Origin: Minisyncoccota bacterium
GTDB taxonomy: Bacteria > Patescibacteriota > Minisyncoccia > Phycocordibacterales > PALSA-1337
Reading direction: 5' to 3'
Length of the DNA stretch: 64,000 nucleotides
Assembly: GCA_041662725.1 (NCBI GenBank)
Contig: JBAZRX010000001.1
Span: 85 to 64,084, forward strand
In this document: one piece after another, positions 4,001 to 49,063 of the stretch
How positions within the stretch are numbered: position 1 is the first letter of the stretch
How the letters are laid out: the number at the start of each line of letters is the position of its first letter
Notes under the pieces: generated by a model
The model's database searches: none
What the model was told of the DNA's origin: nothing
Seen by the model: only the letters and a program-made list of their open reading frames with translations
Position numbers and translations under genes: made by a program

Positions 4001-6004
4001 TCTTCTGACCCTATCACGTTCAATAGTTATTAAGACATCCTTATTAGGATCTCCTAGAGAGATGTTTACAGGAACATTCTCGCCAGGAGAAAATTCTCTA
4101 TCCTGTGCTTTCAACGTAACAACTCCAGAACTGTTCTCGGTGTAATAAGGCACATTCTCTTTTGTAATCCATAAAGATAATTTCTTTTCATAAATATTAC
4201 CTTGTCGATCAGAAACTTTAAGATACAAACTATGACTACCTGTTTTCTGAGGAACGTACACTACTACCGCTTCACCTTTGTCATTTGTAGTAACAGAAAA
4301 GTTTGGTAGGTTTTCCTCAACAAAATGATAATTATAATAACCTTGTGAATTTAAAAGATTTTTATCATCTCTTAACCACTCTCCACGAATTGGAAACACA
4401 GAAATATTTACATTAGAAACTGGAGCATCAGAGTGAGATAGAAGCGTTAGTGGTATTGATATTGATTGCTCAGCTTTTGCATAATATTCGTAGTTACCAG
4501 CACGGATACTATATTCATTTCCTCGTAGCAAAATATTTTTACTAGCTCTAACAGGATTACCACTCTGATCTTGATAACTCGCTTCCACAGAAATAATAGA
4601 AAAGGCATCTCTAGGAAGCATATACGTACCAAAAACAATTTCAGCTTCACCTTTATCATTCAATTCAATCTCTTCATTTTTGATTTCATTTTTTCCGTAA
4701 TAATACCCGCTATAACCATATTTTTTGTAATATTCTAAATTCTCCTCTGTGTAATATTGATTCGCAGAATATTTGACTGAATATTTAACTTTTCCACCAG
4801 AGATTGCTTGACCAGAAAAATACTTACCAGAAAAATGAAGTGAGACGTTTTCTCCTTGTAAAAATTCATCTTTTTCTACATTAATGTCTAAATTATATTC
4901 AGGTTTTCGATAATATTCGACATTAAAATCTGTAACTGTACGTAAATACCATTCCCTATCAGATGTTTCGCCTATATTTACTGATATTTGGTAGGTTCCA
5001 GGACGTGCAGTATTTTCAAGACTGTATTCACCAGATATTGTCCCATTAGCAGAAATTGGATATTTCTTCTCAAATAACAGATTCGTCGAATTGTAATCCT
5101 TATACACCTTTACTGTAACCAATCCAGTAGGAATACTATACTCCGCATTGTCATCATTTCGAATAATTGCTTTAAAATAAACTTTATCACCGGGAGTATA
5201 GAGAGGTCGATCTGTAAAAAGTAAGTACTTTGTATTTACCTTGGAAGTACTGAAGTTTTGGTAATTATAATAATCACTCGGTAGATTCAATATTATCAAC
5301 GTCTGACCTTCTGATGAATTTACAAACCCAACATCGGCATTTACTGATTGTAATGTTTTTGCAATCCCGTCTGAATCTATTGGCGAACTAGAAAGATAAG
5401 TAGGTTTATCTTTGAGACTAAATATTTCAATGCTTCCAGAATTAACTTTTTTCCCTGTAACTATGTTTTGAGTCCATAAAATAATTTCCTTATTACCTTC
5501 TCTGGCCATAGTACCGATCGATGTACGTACCACAGCTGAAAATGTTTGTTCACCATCTGAACTGTATGCCCGCAAAAGCCAAAAACCAACTCCTTCTATC
5601 GGTAACAATGTTTTTTCTCCTATCCCCTTAGTATCAATTGTCACAATTTTTTTCAACTTAGAAACATCCGGAACATTCGCTATGTACTTTTCACTATTAT
5701 CAACCTTATATGTCAAAAAATTCAAAAATTCATCTTTTGAAAAATTATAAACATCTATTTTTACATCTCGTTTAACATCATCATAAGCAGAAATCTTTAT
5801 TGATGGCTCTTGATGTGTCCCCCATACAATCAATCTGCGACTTGAATATTGACCTTCAACAGCATCAACAATACCAATTTTTCTATAAGTATTATCTGCT
5901 GAAACATAATGACTAGAATTTAACAACACCACTATTGCAGTTGTAATCAATAAAACCACCGCAATAACTTTTGAAAGTCTATTCAAATTCACATTTTTGG
6001 GCAT
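1019..6004 (-). CDS. alpha-2-macroglobulin family protein (thioester-containing), membrane-anchored, with internal Hint/BIL domain
   Basis: 1661 aa. N-terminal hydrophobic anchor. 'YPYGCVEQTT' thioester CxEQ motif. 'VLPDNLTTW' A2M-domain motif. Size matches bacterial A2M (ECAM/YfhM, ~1650 aa). Repeated Ig-like beta-rich segments. Confidence 0.85.
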   Translation of the reverse strand: MPKNVNLNRLSKVIAVVLLITTAIVVLLNSSHYVSADNTYRKIGIVDAVEGQYSSRRLIVWGTHQEPSIKISAYDDVKRDVKIDVYNFSKDEFLNFLTYKVDNSEKYIANVPDVSKLKKIVTIDTKGIGEKTLLPIEGVGFWLLRAYSSDGEQTFSAVVRTSIGTMAREGNKEIILWTQNIVTGKKVNSGSIEIFSLKDKPTYLSSSPIDSDGIAKTLQSVNADVGFVNSSEGQTLIILNLPSDYYNYQNFSTSKVNTKYLLFTDRPLYTPGDKVYFKAIIRNDDNAEYSIPTGLVTVKVYKDYNSTNLLFEKKYPISANGTISGEYSLENTARPGTYQISVNIGETSDREWYLRTVTDFNVEYYRKPEYNLDINVEKDEFLQGENVSLHFSGKYFSGQAISGGKVKYSVKYSANQYYTEENLEYYKKYGYSGYYYGKNEIKNEEIELNDKGEAEIVFGTYMLPRDAFSIISVEASYQDQSGNPVRASKNILLRGNEYSIRAGNYEYYAKAEQSISIPLTLLSHSDAPVSNVNISVFPIRGEWLRDDKNLLNSQGYYNYHFVEENLPNFSVTTNDKGEAVVVYVPQKTGSHSLYLKVSDRQGNIYEKKLSLWITKENVPYYTENSSGVVTLKAQDREFSPGENVPVNISLGDPNKDVLITIERDRVRRYFVTSVPGYTSTIYVPTFNTDLPNVFVSASTFTTKGNHLFNSSSKAVTLSKSSKEINVSIIPGAKKYAPGETVELRIKTTDSSGLPISSEVAVWAVDKSLYELISEQRAKIIDVFWGKRYNSTSYKNSFEGITSSGGAEKGCFVGETLILTPNGLKQIKDIKVGDQVLTRRSEIDPTLVKATVKKVHSIITDGYLILNGNIKVTPEHRVWVNNSWKDVGNIQIGDLLIDKNNKEVKVNSIEWQAGKTAVYNLTVENKATYFAGNIYVHNQKGDGGSVRDSFADVAYWNPQIQTDANGNAVVRFVLPDNLTTWLVQGLAVTYDTKVGENATDLLVTKSVIVRPILPNILRIGDDVTISTLSHNFTGSSKQFENALSFMGGSVIGNKTVSLIIDNNSFVETLWKLNVLKPGIAEVKTSLQSNNNPEEKDIVSVKIPVQEFGFNERTSFVGEGNVIYDTIRFPDTNASSSKANLYLSASLFGTLPPAIDYLLQYPYGCVEQTTSRFVPAVIIKENESIFRKIIGDKDLQGFMKTGIDRLSILKDGRGGWGWWYGEVNPFITGYVIEYLKRAEKIGAVVPRDLYESTKTRFENELPKISDPITRIGYIYTLSLLDSPLGKEEIKNFGTSTPDIIALGLLSNIRNGFTDRSTNGYDLLQETAYEENGKKYWNAGTWKFFGSREASTALALRALLEAGASEEMTIGAARYLVSERKSDYWHNTFATSQTIDALLEFTKKYSKGSSTSYKVLIGEKMIDSGTLQGVFDTKTISIDPNLLTHGARLRIEPLNDNQIYSTFVFDQFRTGKDSASKNNGLDITRTYSSSFGIGDVVDINIRVLNIPPESRYLVIEDELPAGLVPINKSFENERSSSAYNPSSYYYWGGDREYTKNGIIASFSYVHNSTMDLTYQARVVSRGTFNVPPARASLMYEPEINGRTGTDVVTITGQKSKSVFNQGDQTGVSDMQTKYRVMGYIILLMLIIAGITHGYDKYKKISSRV
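2507..2518 (-). other. thioester motif CVEQ of A2M
   Basis: Codons for C-V-E-Q; Cys at 2516..2518 on the minus strand. Confidence 0.8.
3194..3577 (-). other. Hint (intein-like / bacterial intein-like) domain embedded in the A2M ORF (residues 810-937)
   Basis: Begins 'CFVGETLILTPNGLK' (Hint block A with Cys1) and ends 'NIYVHN' (block G, terminal Asn). 128 aa with no endonuclease domain. +1 residue is Gln. Confidence 0.65.
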
Positions 6005-6094
6005 AAAAATAATTTATCGTCTAGTAATATAGGCATTATACAACAAAGAAACAAGAAGAGTTTTGCGAATCAGAGATAAATTCCCTGTGGTAAC

Positions 6095-6598
6095 TTACCT
6101 CACCAACGATAAATCACCGTTAACAATTACAGGTTTCATTCCTATAATTTCTTGTTTATAAGTAAGTTCTGATGATATTGAATTTAATATGTATATTTTC
6201 TTCCTGAGATAAAAAGCAACACCAATCTCAATCAAAGTGTTACCACCAACATATCCGCTAATACCTCTTTTATCGGGATTGATAACCAAGATCCCATCAC
6301 ACCAATCAATCTTCTCGTAATGATCTCTGATAGCCCCTTCTTTGAGATCCCAGATCTTGTGTCCTATCGGAAATCCGTCAATACCGCCATTCTGTTCGAT
6401 ATATTGACCAAAATAGACTTTTTTACCACCACCAAATTCTGGCGGAACTTCTAAAGCAAGTTCAGGTATTTTCACTTCAAAACCACGTTTGACTAACTCA
6501 TCCCTAGCTTGTTCCATTTCTTTATAAAAACCAATACTGCCACAAATTGTTATTTTCATAATTTTATTTATTAGATTATCTTTAATTCTTTTAACCAA
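6095..6598 (-). CDS. nucleoside 2-deoxyribosyltransferase-like / DNPH1(Rcl)-like protein
   Basis: 167 aa. 'MKITICGS...' start like NDT-family proteins. 'YVGGNTLIEIGVAFYLRKKIYIL' matches the catalytic-Glu block (GTxxExGxAxxxGKP). True start may be the internal Met (~6559). Overlaps the NUDIX gene by 28 nt. Confidence 0.5.
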   Translation of the reverse strand: MVKRIKDNLINKIMKITICGSIGFYKEMEQARDELVKRGFEVKIPELALEVPPEFGGGKKVYFGQYIEQNGGIDGFPIGHKIWDLKEGAIRDHYEKIDWCDGILVINPDKRGISGYVGGNTLIEIGVAFYLRKKIYILNSISSELTYKQEIIGMKPVIVNGDLSLVR

Positions 6599-7038
6599 TC
6601 ATACCAGACCGGCTCCAAACCTGGCGACTCTTCCCACTCATTTTGCTTGATATCTCCACTAAGATATCTTTCGGTTTTATCTGCAAGTAATTTCAAATCA
6701 TCAGATGAATAAAATCCCGCTTGCTTCGTTTCATCTTCGCTCCTTTTTACCTCTCCGCTAGTTTCAACTTTATATATTTTCCAATAATGCCAACTACCAC
6801 CTTCCCGACGACACGGATTTTCTTTTCGACCTTCAATCAATAATTCAATATTTTTTGAATCTAATCCAACTTCTTCTTTGAGCTCACGTTCTGCGGAATG
6901 TTCAAAGGAACTATCTAGATCGAGATGACCAGCTGGAGGTGCAAAACCAAATGGCGGTCTTTTTCTTTCGATCAGCAGTAACTTCCCATCTTTCCAGACC
7001 AACATCCCGACGCTCTTGTTGTCACATTTATTTGTCAT
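6571..7038 (-). CDS. NUDIX hydrolase
   Basis: 155 aa. Nudix box 'GHLDLDSSFEHSAERELKEEVGL' (GX5EX7REUXEEXGU). Confidence 0.8.
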   Translation of the reverse strand: MTNKCDNKSVGMLVWKDGKLLLIERKRPPFGFAPPAGHLDLDSSFEHSAERELKEEVGLDSKNIELLIEGRKENPCRREGGSWHYWKIYKVETSGEVKRSEDETKQAGFYSSDDLKLLADKTERYLSGDIKQNEWEESPGLEPVWYDWLKELKII

Positions 7039-7178
7039 GTTATTTTAATTTCTTTACAAATTCTACTGGTGAAGAAATAATTTCCCTGAAAAGAATGTAA
7101 CTGCACAATAGCTGTTTTCATGATTGATAATTATACTACATCGATATAATAAATAACCCTAGACTTATGGCCTTTTTA

Positions 7179-17320: not shown

Positions 17321-18436
17321 GTGCGTTTTTACTTCTATTGTCGTATAATCACCCTTATCATGCCTTCCCCTACTTCTTGGAAACTCTACAATCAAAATGA
17401 AGAGGCTTGGAATTCAATGCTCAATGATTGTGCTAACGCTAAAGAAAGTATTGTCTTGGAACAATTCATCTTCTTTAATGATGAATTCGGTCAGAAATTG
17501 ATAGATGTATGTGTAGAAAGAGCCGCCGCCGGTGTCAAAGTAAGATTCCTATGGGATGCCGCTGGTAGTTTTACTTTTTGGGGATCAAATGTTGCTAAAG
17601 ATTTGCAGACAAAAGGGATTGAACTTCTTTTTTGGAAAACACTTATCCCTGGTTACTTTAAGATACCGAACATGCGTTCATGGTATCTACGCAATCATAG
17701 ACGTACATTAGTTATAGATGAAAAAATCGGTTACACAGGCAGTATCTGTGTATATGATAGTTTCAAAAATTGGCGTGACACCAATGTACGACTTGAAGGT
17801 CCTGTTGTATCAGAAATGTCTAATGCTTTTGAACGTATGTGGGCTCGTGCTAATTCAATCAAATTACCTAAGAAAAAATCATCTAGTGATAGAGAATTTA
17901 GATACATTACAAACTATCCTGCCCCTGGCCGAAGACATATATATGCGACCATAATAAAAGCTATACGTGGAGCTCGCAAAAATGTCTACATTACTACACC
18001 GTATTTTGTTCCAACACATCGTCTAATCAAGGCTATCAAATCAACCACCAAAAAGGGTGTTGATGTTCGCCTTATTATCCCAGAAAAATCAGACTATTAC
18101 GCTGTTGATCTAGGAGCACGAGCTTTTTTCAAAACACTTTTACAATCAGGTGTACGGATCTTTCTTTATTCTGAAAATATGATACACAGCAAATCTATAG
18201 TAGTTGACGGCACGTGGGCTACGGTTGGTTCTATGAATATGGACAGTGCCAGTATGCTTTATAATTTTGAAGCTAATATAGTAACTACTAATAATGCTTT
18301 TACACAGGAATTAACTAATCATTTTATAAATGATCTTAAAGAAACCAAAGAAGTATCTCTAACTGAATGGCAAAATAGGTTTTTCCTAGAAAAAATACCA
18401 GAAATATTGATAAGATTGGTAAAGAAATTTTTATAA
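17321..18436 (+). CDS. cls: cardiolipin synthase / phospholipase D family protein
   Basis: Two HKD motifs: 'NHRRTLVIDEKIGYTGSICV' and 'HSKSIVVDGTWATVGSMNMD'. True start may be the internal 'MPSPTSW' (~17360). Confidence 0.8.
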   Translation: MRFYFYCRIITLIMPSPTSWKLYNQNEEAWNSMLNDCANAKESIVLEQFIFFNDEFGQKLIDVCVERAAAGVKVRFLWDAAGSFTFWGSNVAKDLQTKGIELLFWKTLIPGYFKIPNMRSWYLRNHRRTLVIDEKIGYTGSICVYDSFKNWRDTNVRLEGPVVSEMSNAFERMWARANSIKLPKKKSSSDREFRYITNYPAPGRRHIYATIIKAIRGARKNVYITTPYFVPTHRLIKAIKSTTKKGVDVRLIIPEKSDYYAVDLGARAFFKTLLQSGVRIFLYSENMIHSKSIVVDGTWATVGSMNMDSASMLYNFEANIVTTNNAFTQELTNHFINDLKETKEVSLTEWQNRFFLEKIPEILIRLVKKFL

Positions 18437-18484
18437 TTAGTTTTAAGAAAAAAATTATTCATTAAGCTAGAAAAAGAACGTACA

Positions 18485-18509
18485 CCCCAGCTAAAGCTGG
18501 GGGTTTTCT
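18485..18509 (+). terminator. rho-independent terminator after cls
   Basis: CCCCAGC-TAAA-GCTGGGG then TTTTCT. Confidence 0.65.
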
Positions 18510-18511
18510 GG

Positions 18512-18550
18512 TTAAAAGAAAGAGCCTCCGCAAAAAAATTACGGAGGCTC
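18512..18550 (-). terminator. rho-independent terminator after ORF 18557..19267
   Basis: GAGCCTCCG-loop-CGGAGGCTC followed on the minus strand by a U-tract. Confidence 0.6.
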
Positions 18551-18556
18551 AAGTAA

Positions 18557-19267
18557 TCACTGCTTCCAGGCAGCCGACAAGCCGAGGCTGTTATCGTGGC
18601 TGTCATCCCAATAGCTGTCGACGTGTAGGCCCTCATCGAAGCGACCGACGCAGACGTAGCGACCGTCCGAGTCGCAACTGGACGTCCGAACATAAACACC
18701 CTCGAAGAGTCGGACCCCACGAACCTCGAAATAGGTCGTGATGAACCAGCTCATCTCAGCGACGTTCGGCACCTTCTCGAGCGCAGACAGAAGCTTGTTC
18801 TGCTCGCCCCAGGTTTTACTGGTTGAGTTCGAAACAGGCGTCTTCTTGATCAGGAGCCAGCCGAAGGACGTTTTGTCTTCGCGAGCGAACTTCTGGTCGG
18901 AATACCAACCACCCGTCTCCGAGTAGAAGTGGGCGGACTGGATCTCCCGAACATCGAGCGTGGACATCGCCGTGGGTGGCGCAGGCATGACGGCGTAACC
19001 GTTGTCCTTGCACCACTTGAGCACGTCTTCTGACGGCAGACTTTCGGCAAGCGCCATGATCTGTTCGACTGTGTAAACAATGCTCGGGCGAACTTTCGTG
19101 ATTTCCTCGGGTGTAATGAAATCCGCACCGAGGATTGACTGGGCCAGACTGTAATCGGGCGCTTTGGTTGAGAAGCGACGGAACGTTTCGGTAGCTCTCT
19201 GTCCTTTCGGACTGTCTGCGGTTACCAGTGCAGACGTGTTCAATGTTTTCATCGACATCATCTCCAT
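18557..19267 (-). CDS. hypothetical protein in a compositionally foreign (high-GC) gene
   Basis: 236 aa ORF with GC-rich codons (gcg/cgc/gac abundant), unlike the AT-rich flanks. No recognisable motif. Confidence 0.5.
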   Translation of the reverse strand: MEMMSMKTLNTSALVTADSPKGQRATETFRRFSTKAPDYSLAQSILGADFITPEEITKVRPSIVYTVEQIMALAESLPSEDVLKWCKDNGYAVMPAPPTAMSTLDVREIQSAHFYSETGGWYSDQKFAREDKTSFGWLLIKKTPVSNSTSKTWGEQNKLLSALEKVPNVAEMSWFITTYFEVRGVRLFEGVYVRTSSCDSDGRYVCVGRFDEGLHVDSYWDDSHDNSLGLSAAWKQ

Positions 19268-19320
19268 TTGCTGATTTACCGAGAACGCTCGGAACGTCTT
19301 ATCTCATTTAGTAAAATGAC

Positions 19321-19423
19321 CTACTGGGTCAGTTTGAGACGAGCCCTTTATTGCCAAAATTAGGCTCAAAAAGTTTACCCGTCCATAGCTTTATAGCAAA
19401 GAAGGGCTCGTCTCAATCAGTAG
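19321..19423. repeat. imperfect inverted repeat (~26-bp arms, 53-nt spacer) in the divergent region between the high-GC ORF and infC
   Basis: 'ctactgggtcagtttgagacgagccctt' versus 'aagggctcgtctcaatcagtag'. Confidence 0.6.
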
Positions 19424-19566
19424 ATTAACTTGCTAAATCAACAATGATTTTCTATCAAAGAACTACCATAATAGTATACACCTATTATCAGTATCTGTCA
19501 ATACCATTATTTCATTGTCAATTAACTATGAATATGCTATAAATAACCCTTGTAACATATAAGCCA

Positions 19567-20076
19567 TTGGCAATACGAGTCAAAATAAATCATCAAATTA
19601 AGGCGCCGGAATTGCGCGTCGTTACAGCCGAAGGAGAGAATCTCGGTGTAATAAGTCTTTCTGTGGCTCTAGCAGAGGCACAAAAGCGGGGGCTTGATCT
19701 TATTGAGATCTCCCCTACAGCAATACCACCAGTAGCCAAGATAATGGATTTTGGCAAATATCAGTACGATGAAAAGAAAAAGAATAAGATTGCTAAGAGT
19801 AAAACTCAGATGAGTGAGCTCAAGGTAGTCCAGATCAAGATAGGCACAGGAGACCATGATTTAGAACTAAAAGCTAAAAATATCTCCAAATGGCTTACTG
19901 AGGGTAATCGTGTAAAAGTAGATTTATTTCTTATCGGACGTGCTAAGTACATGGAAATGAAATTCTTGAAAGAACGTATGGACCGCGTCCTAAAACTTAT
20001 TACTATTGAATACAAGATTAGCCAAGAAGTAGTAAAAGGTCCAAAAGGTTTGAGTATGGTTATTGAAAAAAAGTAA
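19567..20076 (+). CDS. infC: translation initiation factor IF-3
   Basis: 169 aa. 'INHQIKAPELRVVTAEGENLGV...' matches the IF3 N- and C-domains. Reading frame starts on TTG (non-AUG start typical of infC autoregulation). Confidence 0.9.
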   Translation: MAIRVKINHQIKAPELRVVTAEGENLGVISLSVALAEAQKRGLDLIEISPTAIPPVAKIMDFGKYQYDEKKKNKIAKSKTQMSELKVVQIKIGTGDHDLELKAKNISKWLTEGNRVKVDLFLIGRAKYMEMKFLKERMDRVLKLITIEYKISQEVVKGPKGLSMVIEKK

Positions 20077-44635: not shown

Positions 44636-44746
44636 AAAATTCGCAAATTTTTTTCTACGAATCTACGAATATGCGAATGAAACACAGCATCTGCGATTAT
44701 TCGTAGATTCGTAGCCCATTCGCATAATTCGTAGATTCGTAGTTTA
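44636..44746. promoter_or_regulatory. ACGAAT-family hairpin B2 (upstream of tuf, immediately downstream of the giant gene)
   Basis: Left arm 'ctacgaatctacgaatatgcgaatg', right arm 'cattcgcataattcgtagattcgtag'; 8-bp ctACGAAT units. Confidence 0.75.
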
Positions 44747-47700
44747 CTTAGCAAAATATTCTCCTAAAGAATCCCAAACTGAAGCTCTTCCACTAGTACT
44801 ATTATTTACAGAAGTTGGTGCTGAATTAGGGGTTGGTGTAGGAGTTGGTGTAGGTTTTATTAAATTATAATATTCTGCTGTATTCATCAGAACGCCTTTT
44901 ATATAACTAATATCATAACCAGAATTTACCCAGTAATCTAAACCAGCTTGATCTGGATTACGTTTAAGTAAAGTTACGTACAACTGAGTTATATCATTAA
45001 TTCTTGCTTGTTTTGGAGAAATTGTTGATGTTGGGGTTGGGGTTAAAGTTGGTGTAGGTGTTGGTGAATAATACGGTTTTGTTGTTGGTGAAGGAGAAGG
45101 AGTAATTACTGAAGATTGTGCCTTCACAGTTGTTGTTTGACTTGAAACTATTGATGAAACAGGAATAACCGCAACAGCCTGTGAACCATCGGTGAATTTA
45201 ACTATAAGTTTACCGCCATACCATGTTGTTATTGACTCTTTTTGACCATAGAGCATATAGACTTGAGAACTATATGATGCTTGACCAAGAGGCAAAACGT
45301 CATAATACTTATCATTAAATTGAGTACTTGAGCCCTGTATAACAATAACAAGTGGATATGGCTTTCTACCATAAGAATCAAGTTCGGCACTTGTTGACCA
45401 CGCTTCACCATTATTATCACTCAAAACAGTTATTGATTTTATACTTTTTCCACCAGCACTATTGATTTTCATTTCCATACGCCATCCCCAATCAGATGGA
45501 TCTTTACTTATATACCCACGTCCAGAACTAAATTGATCCCAAGCACCAGCACGATCTTCATTGGCGCTATACACAACAGCTTTAATAGTGCCATCAAATG
45601 TAGGGTAATTCGATGACGGTGTTTGTGTAGGGGTAGGATTTAAAGAAACAGCAGAAGTTTTAATTGTAGACTGTGTTACTTTTGCATATGTTGGTGGAAG
45701 ACTAAGCTTCTCTTCGTCTGATGCTATAACTGTTTTACCATCTTTTACTGAAAGAAGTTCGGCCTTAGCAACAACAGTTTGGACAACACTGGTATTATTT
45801 TTAAATATCACATCAATAAAACCGTCAGGAGCAACTTTATTTTTTACACCACAAGCAAGACCGCCGTTTACATTAGTTGGAGCTGAAGCGACAACACCTG
45901 TAGGACAGACGATTGAAAGAATCCAATCAAACTCATCAACTTGACTGTTTGTAGAATAACGTACACGAATACCTTCATTAGTTCCGATTATTTTTGAAGA
46001 AAGAGTAAAAACAGAAGAAGAAACTGGGGCTGTAATAGAAGATTGTGCCGAATTAGAAACTTTAACTTTTATAGTATTACTTTTTATAGCTTCATTTTTA
46101 GCATTTAAGGACATTAAATATAAATTGTAATCACCATCAACAATAGAAGTAGTTGGCTCATTCCACCAACCATCTGGATGCACGCCACGACCTATTGTGC
46201 TAGGAATTGTAAAACTGAGTTTAGAACCATCGTATAGTGAATATCCTGTTAATGTACGAACATCATGAGAATACCCCACTGACCATGTTTTTGAGCCATC
46301 AACTGTTGTAAGAATAATATTTCCTGTTCTACCAGCACCTGTTGCATAAATTGTTAATAAAGATCCTACTGAAACAGGCTGAGGTGCAACTCGGCTTATT
46401 TCTGGTTGTACTCCACTTACTGGAGGAATAATACTAAAAAAATCATTACTATCATCACAAATATCTGTTCCTGCTTTACATACCCTTGCCTTATATTGAC
46501 CAACAGAAATTTGACTAGGATACGTAGAAAATCCGAGTGACTGTGCATTTTTATTTGATGGTTTTAAATTTAACTGGATAGGACTTGGTATAACTTGACC
46601 AGATGAATTTAGTAACTTTACATCAACTGATTGGGTAGGATCTATGGAATCCCATATAACACTCAATGATTCGCCCTGTGCTATTTTTTCTCCTCCATTA
46701 GGTGAAACAATAACAACACTACCCCTATTAGGAGCTGGAACGTCAACTTTAGCCTTAACCGCTTTTGCATTACATGATGCATTTATTTTTTTTAAAGTAA
46801 AAGGTCCAGCAACGCCAGTTGAAGGAACTCCGATTGATGTTTGAAATGCTTTTACTGCGGCTTTGGTATCAGAACCAAAATATCCCTTCAGAGCATTACC
46901 TAAAGAAATACTCGGAATATCAAAACCGTTATTGATCAACCATGTTTGCAAAGCTACGACTTCTGATCCAGAACTACCTACAGAAAGGCCAGAGTTTTCT
47001 AAAGCAAAGATAGCTGAGAAGTTGTAACACAAACTTATTCCTGAAGAAGCTTTGAATTTAGAGTTAGTTGAATCAACTGAACTATCCGCCACAGTACACA
47101 CATATCCGGTAGGACATCCTTCAGGTTGAACAGCTAGAGGTGTACAAACATAACCTTCAGGACATGAAAAAGGAAGTGTACAAATATATCCAACAGGACA
47201 TAAAACAGAAGATTGCTCTAGTGCATCCCCTACAGCGGCAACAAGTCTTGTATCTCTTGGTACAAGACTAACTGGACTAGAACTCGGCATTGGTGTTGGA
47301 GAAGATGAAGATGTTGGAGAAGTTGAAGGAGTCGGTGTAGGAGATGGAGTTGAAGAAGGTGTAGGAGATGGAGTTGGAGTAATAATCGGTGTTGGGGTAG
47401 GAGTAGAAGCTGGAGATGGCGTTGGTGTTGAAGAAGGAGCTACTGAAGGAGTCGGCGAAGAATAATAACTTGAAGTTGGAGATGGTGAAGGTGTATATGT
47501 TGGTGAGTAAGTAGATGTTGGGGAAGGAGTATATGTTGGGGAATAAGAAGAAGTTGGTATAGGAGTAGAAGTTGGTCTAGGTGTATATGTTGGTGAGTAA
47601 GTAGAAGTCGGAACAGGAGTTGCTGAAGATACTGGTCTAGGAGTAGCTGAGTAAGCAGGAATTGGAGTTGTTGCTGGAACATAAGCAGGACTTGGAGAGA

Positions 47701-49063
47701 TAGAACGCATACACCTATCACCTATCTTAGTGTAACCAGGAGGACAAGATGCTGGTGAAGGTGAAGCTGCTGGTGCTGATGAATACGTAGGAGCAGAAGA
47801 AACCGCTGGAGTAGCTTGTGGTGTACTAACTGGTAACGTTGTTGGTGAAGAGCCTGTAATTAACGAAGTGGCAAATCTTAAAGCGCTTGAGTATGTATTA
47901 CGTATTCTTCCGAAGAAACCAGTTGATGCTGCTGGAGTTGGGGCTGGGGTGGAAACTACTGGACGATTCAATGTAGTAAAAACACCTTCTCTTGTTAACA
48001 CACCAGACCAAGTATAGAAATTATCTAAACCAGTAGTTTGATTAGTAACAGTTTTTCCCCCTACAGTGTAATCAATATCCTTAACTGCCATAAGCAAGTT
48101 AAGGGAAGGATTGTTTGGAGTGAAAGGAAGTGCTTGGTTTGATGATACCTGACCATTCAAAACAACTGTATATGTACCACCATCCCCGATAGTTGCATCA
48201 GACGGAGTCACATATATATTCATAATACTTGCTGTGTATGCATTCTGTTTGTTCCCTGCTGTCGATGTTACATAGGCACCATTTGTCTGTGTTGATGATG
48301 CAAATACAAGAGTGAAGTCTTTAAGGGTAGGTTTAACCATCACTCCTCCAACTGCTTTAGCTTTAAGAGTAATAGTTCCGAATAGAGAGCTTGAGGCTAC
48401 ATCTTTTACACCTGGTGCTGAAAAAATATCAGCACTTACGAATGACCAGTCGACGCGAGGATATGTTGTATTTGACAAAGTACTATTACAAAGACCATTT
48501 CTAGGATAATCAAGACTTAATTCCTTTGTATTTGTCTTAAAATCCATTAAATCTCTAATTTCAACTCTAGCCACCCTTCCACCAACGTTAAAAGTAATAT
48601 CTCTAATTGCCATAAAGAGATTTTGGGCTGAACAAATATCAGGATTATTAGACATAACAGCACCGTAAATTGTTACTGTGTATTCTTCTCCATCATTAAT
48701 CGTAGGTTTATTTGGTGTAACAACAATAGATCTGATGACCCCAGAATAGATAGAATTTGAAGAATCAATACGTTTAAAAGGTTTGTATATTTCCGTACTG
48801 GAAGCAAAAATTAAACTAAAATCGCTAGCCTTTGGCTTAACTATCGTTCCTCCAACCGCTTTAACTTTAAGAGTAATAGTTCCGGTTAGAGAGCTTGAAG
48901 CTACATCTTTTACACCTGGTGTTGAAGCAATATCGGAACTTACGAAGGACCAAGAGGCACGAGGAGAGGTAGCCTGCGCCTCAACTTTCGTTATTTCACC
49001 AGAGAAAACCGCAAACGATAATACTGTTAGCGAAATAAAGAAAGAAAATAATATTTTTTTCAT
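44744..49063 (-). CDS. giant secreted multidomain protein (PT-rich linkers, PG_binding_1-like and DUF4214-like domains)
   Basis: 1439 aa. Signal peptide. Tandem duplicated ~55-aa module ([36 protein letters not shown] / [37 protein letters not shown]). '[12 protein letters not shown]' repeats. Three 'CPxGYxCT' repeats. '[16 protein letters not shown]...[14 protein letters not shown]...GVAGPFT' peptidoglycan-binding-like. C-terminal '[22 protein letters not shown]' DUF4214-like. Confidence 0.8.

Follow-up and report, generated by a model that had tools for sequence, protein, structure and literature searches.

A GC-rich cassette in a Patescibacteria genome encodes a variable protein of a diversity-generating retroelement family, apparently parted from its mutator

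The GC-rich gene at 18557..19267 (minus strand) of the window, by which we mean the whole 64,000-nt stretch of Minisyncoccota DNA analysed here, probably belongs to a horizontally acquired cassette of ~1 kb that encodes a variable protein of Patescibacteria diversity-generating retroelements (DGRs), and it most likely survives as a frozen, single-variant binding protein that is not diversified in cis. What had first been taken for an anonymous 'foreign' gene is now defined as a DGR variable protein parted from its mutator. In complete elements of the family, a module comprising reverse transcriptase (RT), Avd and template repeat (TR) copies the ~118-nt TR into cDNA with misreading of the template adenines, and the cDNA replaces the 3' end of the target gene; in this way, ~12-15 codons are randomised on the face by which a domain with a C-type-lectin fold binds its ligand. 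The window holds the target cassette alone: a promoter, a structured leader, an ORF with a presumably once mutagenised variable region (VR), and a terminator. Transcribed from its own promoter, the gene would yield one fixed variant of a ligand-binding protein; its VR would no longer be overwritten by cDNA, and the gene is probably still expressed and still under purifying selection.

The first-pass annotation had noticed this gene because the ORF and ~100 nt on each side looked GC-richer than the rest of the window, and the computed profile, which is not flat, bears this out. In 200-nt windows, GC reaches 0.51-0.585 across positions 18500-19299 against a window mean of ~0.36, and the ORF itself (GC 0.557, ~6 sd over the mean) is essentially the top 711-nt stretch in 64 kb. 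GC at its codon positions 1, 2 and 3 amounts to 0.52, 0.45 and 0.70, the last value comparing with a GC3 of 0.242±0.045 in host ORFs (n=27; z=10.1). Whole-gene GC deviates from that of the host ORFs by z=5.4, the tetranucleotide distance of the GC-rich unit by z=4.1, and the codon choices of the ORF are opposite to those of the host. The raised GC reaches only ~40-100 nt past the ORF ends, into the cassette's own conserved untranslated regions, and the compositional jump is abrupt at both edges of the island. Elsewhere in the window, GC is locally up (0.434) at 47001-48000, with a strongly positive GC skew (+0.39), within a 1,439-aa ORF on the minus strand (44744..49063).

Around the cassette lie the housekeeping genes typical of a small genome rich in AT: tmRNA, smpB, a PLD-like gene, infC-rpmI-rplT and an RNase J-like gene. 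The whole inserted unit spans 18514..19528 (minus strand), the limits at which the homology to relatives stops, between the PLD/cardiolipin-synthase-like gene (17321..18436, plus strand) and infC-rpmI-rplT (from 19567, plus strand). Its right-hand edge on the host side is marked by a promoter-like motif of infC, ATGCTATAAAT (19534..19544, plus strand), which is kept in syntenic relatives. Among 14 related loci obtained by searching with the neighbouring PLD protein, six (L040, L043, L047, L049, L050 and L053) show the order smpB-PLD-infC-rpmI-rplT-RNase J with an empty site, the gap between PLD and infC measuring 55-230 nt in these syntenic relatives versus 1,130 nt in the window. Hence, the cassette was inserted. 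Furthermore, it is 87-94% identical at the DNA level to copies from dozens of Patescibacteria assemblies, where their genomic contexts are unrelated, while the flanks of these near-identical copies are unalignable or at most ~70% identical. Atypical composition is thus combined with absence from the orthologous site, and horizontal acquisition, proposed from the composition at the outset, is well supported by the six empty sites and by the recurrence of the same cassette elsewhere.

The donor is a different matter. The gene does not look like an anonymous gene from a high-GC donor, as had been suggested, but belongs to a DGR target family that is GC-rich across its hosts. Likewise, a phage donor is unsupported, since no relative of the target cassette was found among the IMG/VR viral contigs. 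Adjacent to the insertion there is neither an integrase nor a transposase gene, and no target-site duplication, terminal inverted repeat or convincing direct repeat was found at its borders in the window. At the same site (equivalent to window 18437-19566), two relatives carry other genes, a histidine kinase (L044:6128-7720) and a secreted protein (L048:6154-6900), each running against the direction of PLD and infC, which indicates that the interval between PLD and infC is a recurrent or variable insertion spot.

The hairpins reported on both sides of the gene are real: we find a terminator-like pair (18485-18502 and 18550-18522) and a long inverted repeat with 26-nt arms. They are not, however, boundary marks of a mobile element, and the description of the pair as a bidirectional terminator holds only insofar as both members are terminator-like. 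A search for rho-independent terminators recovered 18485-18502 on the plus strand and 18550-18522 on the minus strand (4 sites versus 1.7±1.3 in shuffles), but these are two separate things. The hairpin at 18485..18502 (plus strand) is that of the host PLD/cardiolipin-synthase-like gene and lies outside the region homologous to relatives, whereas 18514..18550 (minus strand) is the cassette's own GC-rich terminator, a 12-bp stem at 18522-18550 followed by a T-run, whose sequence almost all relatives have kept. As for the long inverted repeat, it forms a stem-loop in the 5' leader of the cassette (19334..19416, minus strand) that is likewise conserved, with arms at 19334-19359 and 19391-19416 that are 85% complementary.

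Read in the direction of transcription, the cassette begins with a sigma-70-like promoter (TTGACA-17-TATACT, 11 of 12; 19473..19501, minus strand), which is conserved in relatives. The leader stem-loop is followed by the rest of the leader (19279..19331, minus strand), comprising a small hairpin, TGACCCAGTAGGTCA, at 19317-19331 and a conserved hairpin, CCGAGCGTTCTCGG, at 19279-19292, and downstream of these lies a GGAG ribosome-binding site (19262-19265, minus strand). In the other aligned loci, the conserved order of the unit is promoter, ~140-nt leader, ORF, a small hairpin between CTTGA repeats, and GC-rich terminator. The main stem-loop stands at the same position in 20 aligned related loci, save for one degenerate copy (L018), and compensatory changes occur in 6 of 25 pairs of its stem. 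In the window copy, the inner stem and loop of this hairpin are enlarged, and the leader folds with -67.6 kcal/mol (z=-4.8). As no U-run stands behind it, a role of the stem-loop as terminator was rejected; more probably, it serves to stabilise the mRNA or to control its translation. At the other end of the cassette, a 37-nt element that contains the small hairpin and normally lies between stop codon and terminator is deleted in the window, with a junction near 18553. Rfam returned nothing near gathering score within 18000-20000, and in the whole window only the tmRNA and two tRNAs. The palindrome GACCCAGTAGGTC, which in the window (19317-19331) follows the leader hairpin on its downstream side, is found upstream of it in L003 and L032, and appears to be a mobile mini-hairpin inside the leader.

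A search of a large protein collection yielded 288 relatives of the window protein at 60-83% identity, almost all of them from Patescibacteria and none with a Pfam domain; the named records with other taxon labels are two, P0096 (Thermodesulfobacteriota) and P0216 (Actinobacteria). With a profile search at E<=1e-3, the superfamily grows to 3,448 representatives of 50%-identity clusters. The family alignment combines a conserved body with hypervariable positions scattered over the C-terminus (SSLDSDGxRVxVGxFDSxGLxVxxxWxDxRxDxLGVSAARK), and inside one 90%-identity cluster nearly all differences fall on these hypervariable positions. Some relatives belong to 90% clusters that hold 27-45 VR variants, while the window protein is a singleton in its own.

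In locus L004, genes for bAvd and for an RVT_1 reverse transcriptase come after the target, and in L006 both genes precede it. Altogether, Avd/RT genes lie within 6 kb of the target in 17 of ~37 loci, about half of the loci being orphan targets, and a ~118-nt TR is present at every locus with adjacent Avd/RT. The 118-nt direct repeat of L004 differs from the 3' end of the target at 18 positions, of which 17 are adenines of the repeat. When the strictly homologous span is compared, 12 of 14 linked VRs agree with their own TR at every non-adenine position and mismatch it at 14-22 adenines. Linked VRs thus differ from their own TR at adenines, which is the defining signature of a DGR. Across the family, VR entropy amounts to 1.43 bits at template-adenine columns versus 0.37 elsewhere (p=1e-12). 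In L035, tandem targets of different subfamilies (4631-5464 and 5812-6624) both have VRs that match one TR at 7023-7143; the first of the two represents a sister subfamily, and the profile search that uncovered it gave 1,127 matches. The orphan target of L021 (match from 6016) has an in-frame TAG at codon 147, a conserved Trp position, and is a pseudogene; at least some orphans decay.

The window protein itself (236 aa; NCBI MFA6294807.1, locus tag WC666_00095, from a Candidatus Paceibacterota MAG) probably starts at the ATG at 19252, 9 nt past the GGAG, as in most homologues. The protein had been described as one without recognisable motif. Searches of Pfam, PHROGs and PDB sequences with the protein and with family profiles returned only sub-threshold noise (Aldo_ket_red, Pdc1_Ge1), and a Pfam FGE-sulfatase match was absent even at E<=10; the description no longer holds, given the DGR-type VR and the C-type-lectin fold. 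AF2 gave a pLDDT of 50 from an alignment of 74 close homologues alone and a confident model of the window sequence once the sister subfamily was added. The model has a C-type-lectin/FGE-like fold and places the VR at the surface, the arrangement by which DGR variable proteins (C-type-lectin or Ig-like) are recognised. Foldseek matches of the model to the PDB have weak E-values, yet every one of them is of the C-type-lectin/FGE class; a BFVD fold search with the model gave nothing significant. No signal peptide or membrane anchor is evident in the protein.

Compared with its family, the window protein lacks ~30 aa near the N-terminus through an in-frame deletion (junction near 19181), and other intact members (P0034, P0091 and P0110) have N-terminal deletions of a like kind. 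Residue 234 is Trp instead of a nearly invariant Arg. All deletions in the ORF are in frame and the ORF is intact, and the amino-acid identity of the body to relatives reaches 0.82-0.94, indicating purifying selection. The alternative that the GC-rich island is a structured RNA was ruled out, since the ORF is kept as a protein, with amino-acid identity far above the synonymous expectation, and folds confidently.

The VR comprises the 3' ~118 nt of the ORF (18563..18680, minus strand) and is homologous to the TRs of related DGRs. Relative to the nearest of these, that of L012, differences in the window VR affect 14 of the 28 template adenines and 13 of the 83 remaining positions (p=6e-4), and a 3-nt gap marks the loss of one codon. 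Variation at template adenines is thus seen both in the entropy of the family and in the window copy. The non-adenine changes exceed those of most other orphans; the 13 differences could mean that the cognate TR is a divergent, unsampled one rather than that the VR has drifted. At its IMH-like 3' end, the VR has kept its sequence but for a single mismatch (A-to-T) in the last 21 nt, and a 12-bp GC-rich hairpin stands ~6-9 nt past the stop codon; its loop is not a GRNA tetraloop, and the small proximal hairpin of the family is deleted. In phage DGRs, functional targets have a GC-rich hairpin/cruciform 4-34 bp from the VR (PMC3240598). As judged from the near-intact VR 3' end and a hairpin within this distance, the window copy may remain homing-competent.

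The rest of the machinery is missing from the window. A second copy of 18557-18720, as expected of a TR, was not found by blastn (word size 7) in the 64 kb analysed out of a 75-kb contig, nor was an RT with its IGNLTSQ motif or an Avd by tblastn with two DGR RTs and two Avds (best E=0.6). As such, the gene has the hallmarks of a DGR variable protein at the protein level, whereas at the locus level neither a cognate TR nor RT and Avd genes accompany it within the window. The losses of the VR-adjacent small hairpin, of ~30 N-terminal codons and of one VR codon, together with the absence of TR, Avd and RT, make a frozen state the most likely one. Indeed, the VR indel, the non-adenine changes, the deletion of the proximal hairpin and the singleton cluster all argue against recent homing.

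Is the gene instead a remote target, which an RT, Avd and TR encoded at another place in this genome still diversify in trans? We regard this as unlikely, albeit worth keeping in mind. Its IMH-like end and the GC-rich downstream hairpin would be those of a working target, and the one TR shared by two VRs in L035 makes more than one VR per DGR possible. Moreover, orphan copies have kept adenines at TR-adenine columns as linked copies have (0.43 vs 0.45), the orphan L032 has no non-adenine mismatch to a TR from another genome, and such remote targets are stated to exist and to be missed in surveys (PMC8144416). Repeated homing, however, would erase both the 3-nt deletion and the 13 non-adenine differences that separate the window VR from every known TR; the small hairpin beside the VR is gone, RT, Avd and TR are all absent from the 64 kb, and the protein stands alone in its 90% cluster where some relatives have 27-45 VR variants. 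These observations agree better with the frozen copy that we prefer.

The same losses could be taken one step further, to a functionless remnant of a former DGR locus that is turning into a pseudogene. Three deletions relative to the family (~30 aa at the N-terminus, one VR codon, 37 nt downstream), the Arg-to-Trp change at residue 234 and the stop codon of the L021 orphan point in this direction; but an intact ORF with exclusively in-frame deletions, an intact promoter, ribosome-binding site, leader and terminator, the confident model of the window sequence, the comparable deletions in P0034, P0091 and P0110, and an amino-acid conservation that is high relative to synonymous divergence render such decay improbable. 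Least credible of all is an assembly chimera with DNA of a different, high-GC organism, a possibility raised by the first-pass annotation to which the abrupt compositional jump at both edges lends some appeal. The GC-rich unit lies inside low-GC Patescibacteria contigs of >30 independent assemblies made with different assemblers, it is bounded by a promoter and a terminator and not by arbitrary points, both flanks carry on the synteny of relatives, and the family is almost confined to Patescibacteria records, the exceptions among the named ones being P0096 and P0216. A chimera is therefore very unlikely, and the frozen, acquired cassette remains the reading that we favour.

The high GC is not peculiar to the window. 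Target genes have a GC of 0.52-0.66 in 36 of 37 loci, in hosts of 0.32-0.53, and a GC3 of 0.62-0.90 in the loci where it was computed, whereas the adjacent Avd and RT genes, at 0.28-0.52, are nearer to host composition. The one exception, L039, is the most distant relative (target GC 0.42, GC3 0.33) and looks like an old resident that has lost the bias. At four-fold sites, the window target is 0.61-0.77 identical to most relatives, where chance would give ~0.29, the distant family members give ~0.35-0.45, and those of them that are equally GC-rich (L031, L033, L035 and L036) 0.31-0.47. Since this identity is far above such values, the cassettes descend from a recent common ancestor, too recent for their composition to have approached that of the hosts; the high GC came with the cassette lineage and did not arise in the window genome. 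The values of 0.31-0.47 in the GC-rich distant members also rule out pure compositional convergence behind the synonymous identity. Avoidance of adenine as the cause of the high GC was rejected as well, because four-fold sites are poor in T as well as in A (A 0.13, T 0.18, G 0.30, C 0.39).

The mutator module has had another history. For the same pairs of loci (drawn from L004, L006-L008, L011-L013, L015, L018, L022, L023, L030, L031 and L035), the median four-fold identity is 0.69 for the target body but 0.33 for Avd and 0.34 for RT, which is near saturation; between L006 and L007, it is 0.81 for the target and 0.25-0.26 for Avd/RT. At the DNA level, target cassettes are 88-94% identical where the RT-Avd-TR module is ~75% identical, and the module varies in its orientation and in the side of the target on which it lies. 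The simplest reading of these sequence comparisons is that the cassette would spread, or be replaced, independently of the mutator module, the window representing a landing without it.

The RT genes of relatives have a peculiarity of their own. Among 13 distinct RT genes, 8 have a (GA)n tract of 6-15 units within their ORF, just upstream of the GVPIGNLTSQ motif (L007:4470-4489, L011:2505-2516, L012:4459-4486, L013:4464-4493, L008:8223-8249, L018:8336-8356, L030:4278-4297 and L006:8456-8471). Only that of L007 is in frame, the others being shifted by +1 or +2, and in-frame (RE)n of varied lengths are common among the best RT homologues. All dinucleotide repeats of at least 6 units in ~600 kb of fetched loci are such RT (GA)n tracts. 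This pattern suggests that the DGR reverse transcriptase could be subject to ON/OFF phase variation by slipped-strand mispairing; in a full-text literature search, no publication that connects DGRs to repeats of this kind was found. Tentatively, and aware that the idea has a better chance of failing than of holding, we propose that the target cassette might circulate among Patescibacteria independently of the RT-Avd-TR module, landing beside much more divergent resident machinery or alone; its persistent GC of 55-64% and its low synonymous divergence would then be due to one cassette lineage having spread recently and repeatedly, not to vertical descent, partner RTs would be switched by hypermutable (GA)n tracts, and hypermutation would be both modular and phase-variable. 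The decoupled histories of cassette and module and the tracts in the RT genes point to testable rules that would govern the use of hypermutation and its silencing.

Cellular DGRs of Patescibacteria/CPR were reportedly treated by Paul et al. in 2017. DGRs are abundant in the candidate phyla radiation, with CPR targets that have no recognisable transmembrane or Pfam domains, and surveys miss the remote targets that exist (PMC8144416). The relatives of the window gene resemble the cellular Patescibacteria/CPR DGRs (clade 2; Roux et al. 2021, PMC8144416) in host group, RT, bAvd, TR and a target with C-terminal VR, and here, too, the targets are without recognisable transmembrane or Pfam domain. 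They differ in that the window has the target alone, that the module of the family occurs on either side and in either orientation, and that the target cassette is far more conserved than the module at synonymous sites. With remote or multiple targets served in trans, the window gene shares a VR, an IMH-like end, a downstream hairpin and the lack of an adjacent RT, but its VR is set apart by an indel and by non-adenine changes relative to all known TRs. The solved DGR variable proteins TvpA of Treponema denticola (PDB 2Y3C), Mtd of Bordetella phage BPP-1 (1YU0) and TaqVP (5VF4) are only 6-13% identical to the window protein; TvpA has a lipoprotein signal, which the window protein lacks, and Mtd sits in a phage tail-fibre context, unlike the window gene. 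Furthermore, the proteins with formylglycine-generating-enzyme-like (FGE-like) domains, pFGE/SUMF2 (1Y4J), EgtB, SenA and OvoA, are enzymes with catalytic Cys or metal sites, whereas no such motifs are evident in the window protein.

The window gene is thus an orphan copy from a very large, uncharacterised family of C-type-lectin targets, in a radiation in which DGRs were already known. Surveys that start from the RT miss orphan targets, which make up about half of the loci examined here, and the reach of DGR-shaped proteins in CPR is probably underestimated. With its thousands of 50%-identity clusters, the lack of a Pfam model, a C-type-lectin fold modelled with confidence and a leader RNA that is conserved, the family is a tractable candidate for the ligand-binding and possibly host-attachment proteins of these episymbionts.

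Several minor observations concern the surroundings of related cassettes. In L010, a perfect 29-nt inverted repeat (5716-5744 and 6877-6905) brackets an orphan target cassette and may have been left behind by an inversion or by the duplication of a cassette end; a bracketing repeat of this type is absent from the window and from the five loci checked (L007, L001, L009, L032 and L029). The complete DGR of L004 adjoins a prophage-like block (L004:13247-18880) with two N6/N4 DNA methyltransferase genes, a terminase-like gene and a serine recombinase gene. A segment of ~220 nt stands behind the target terminator in L007 (6888-7108) and, at 80% identity, before the RT module in L012 (3694-3911), an arrangement compatible with terminal repeats or with a circularly permuted element.
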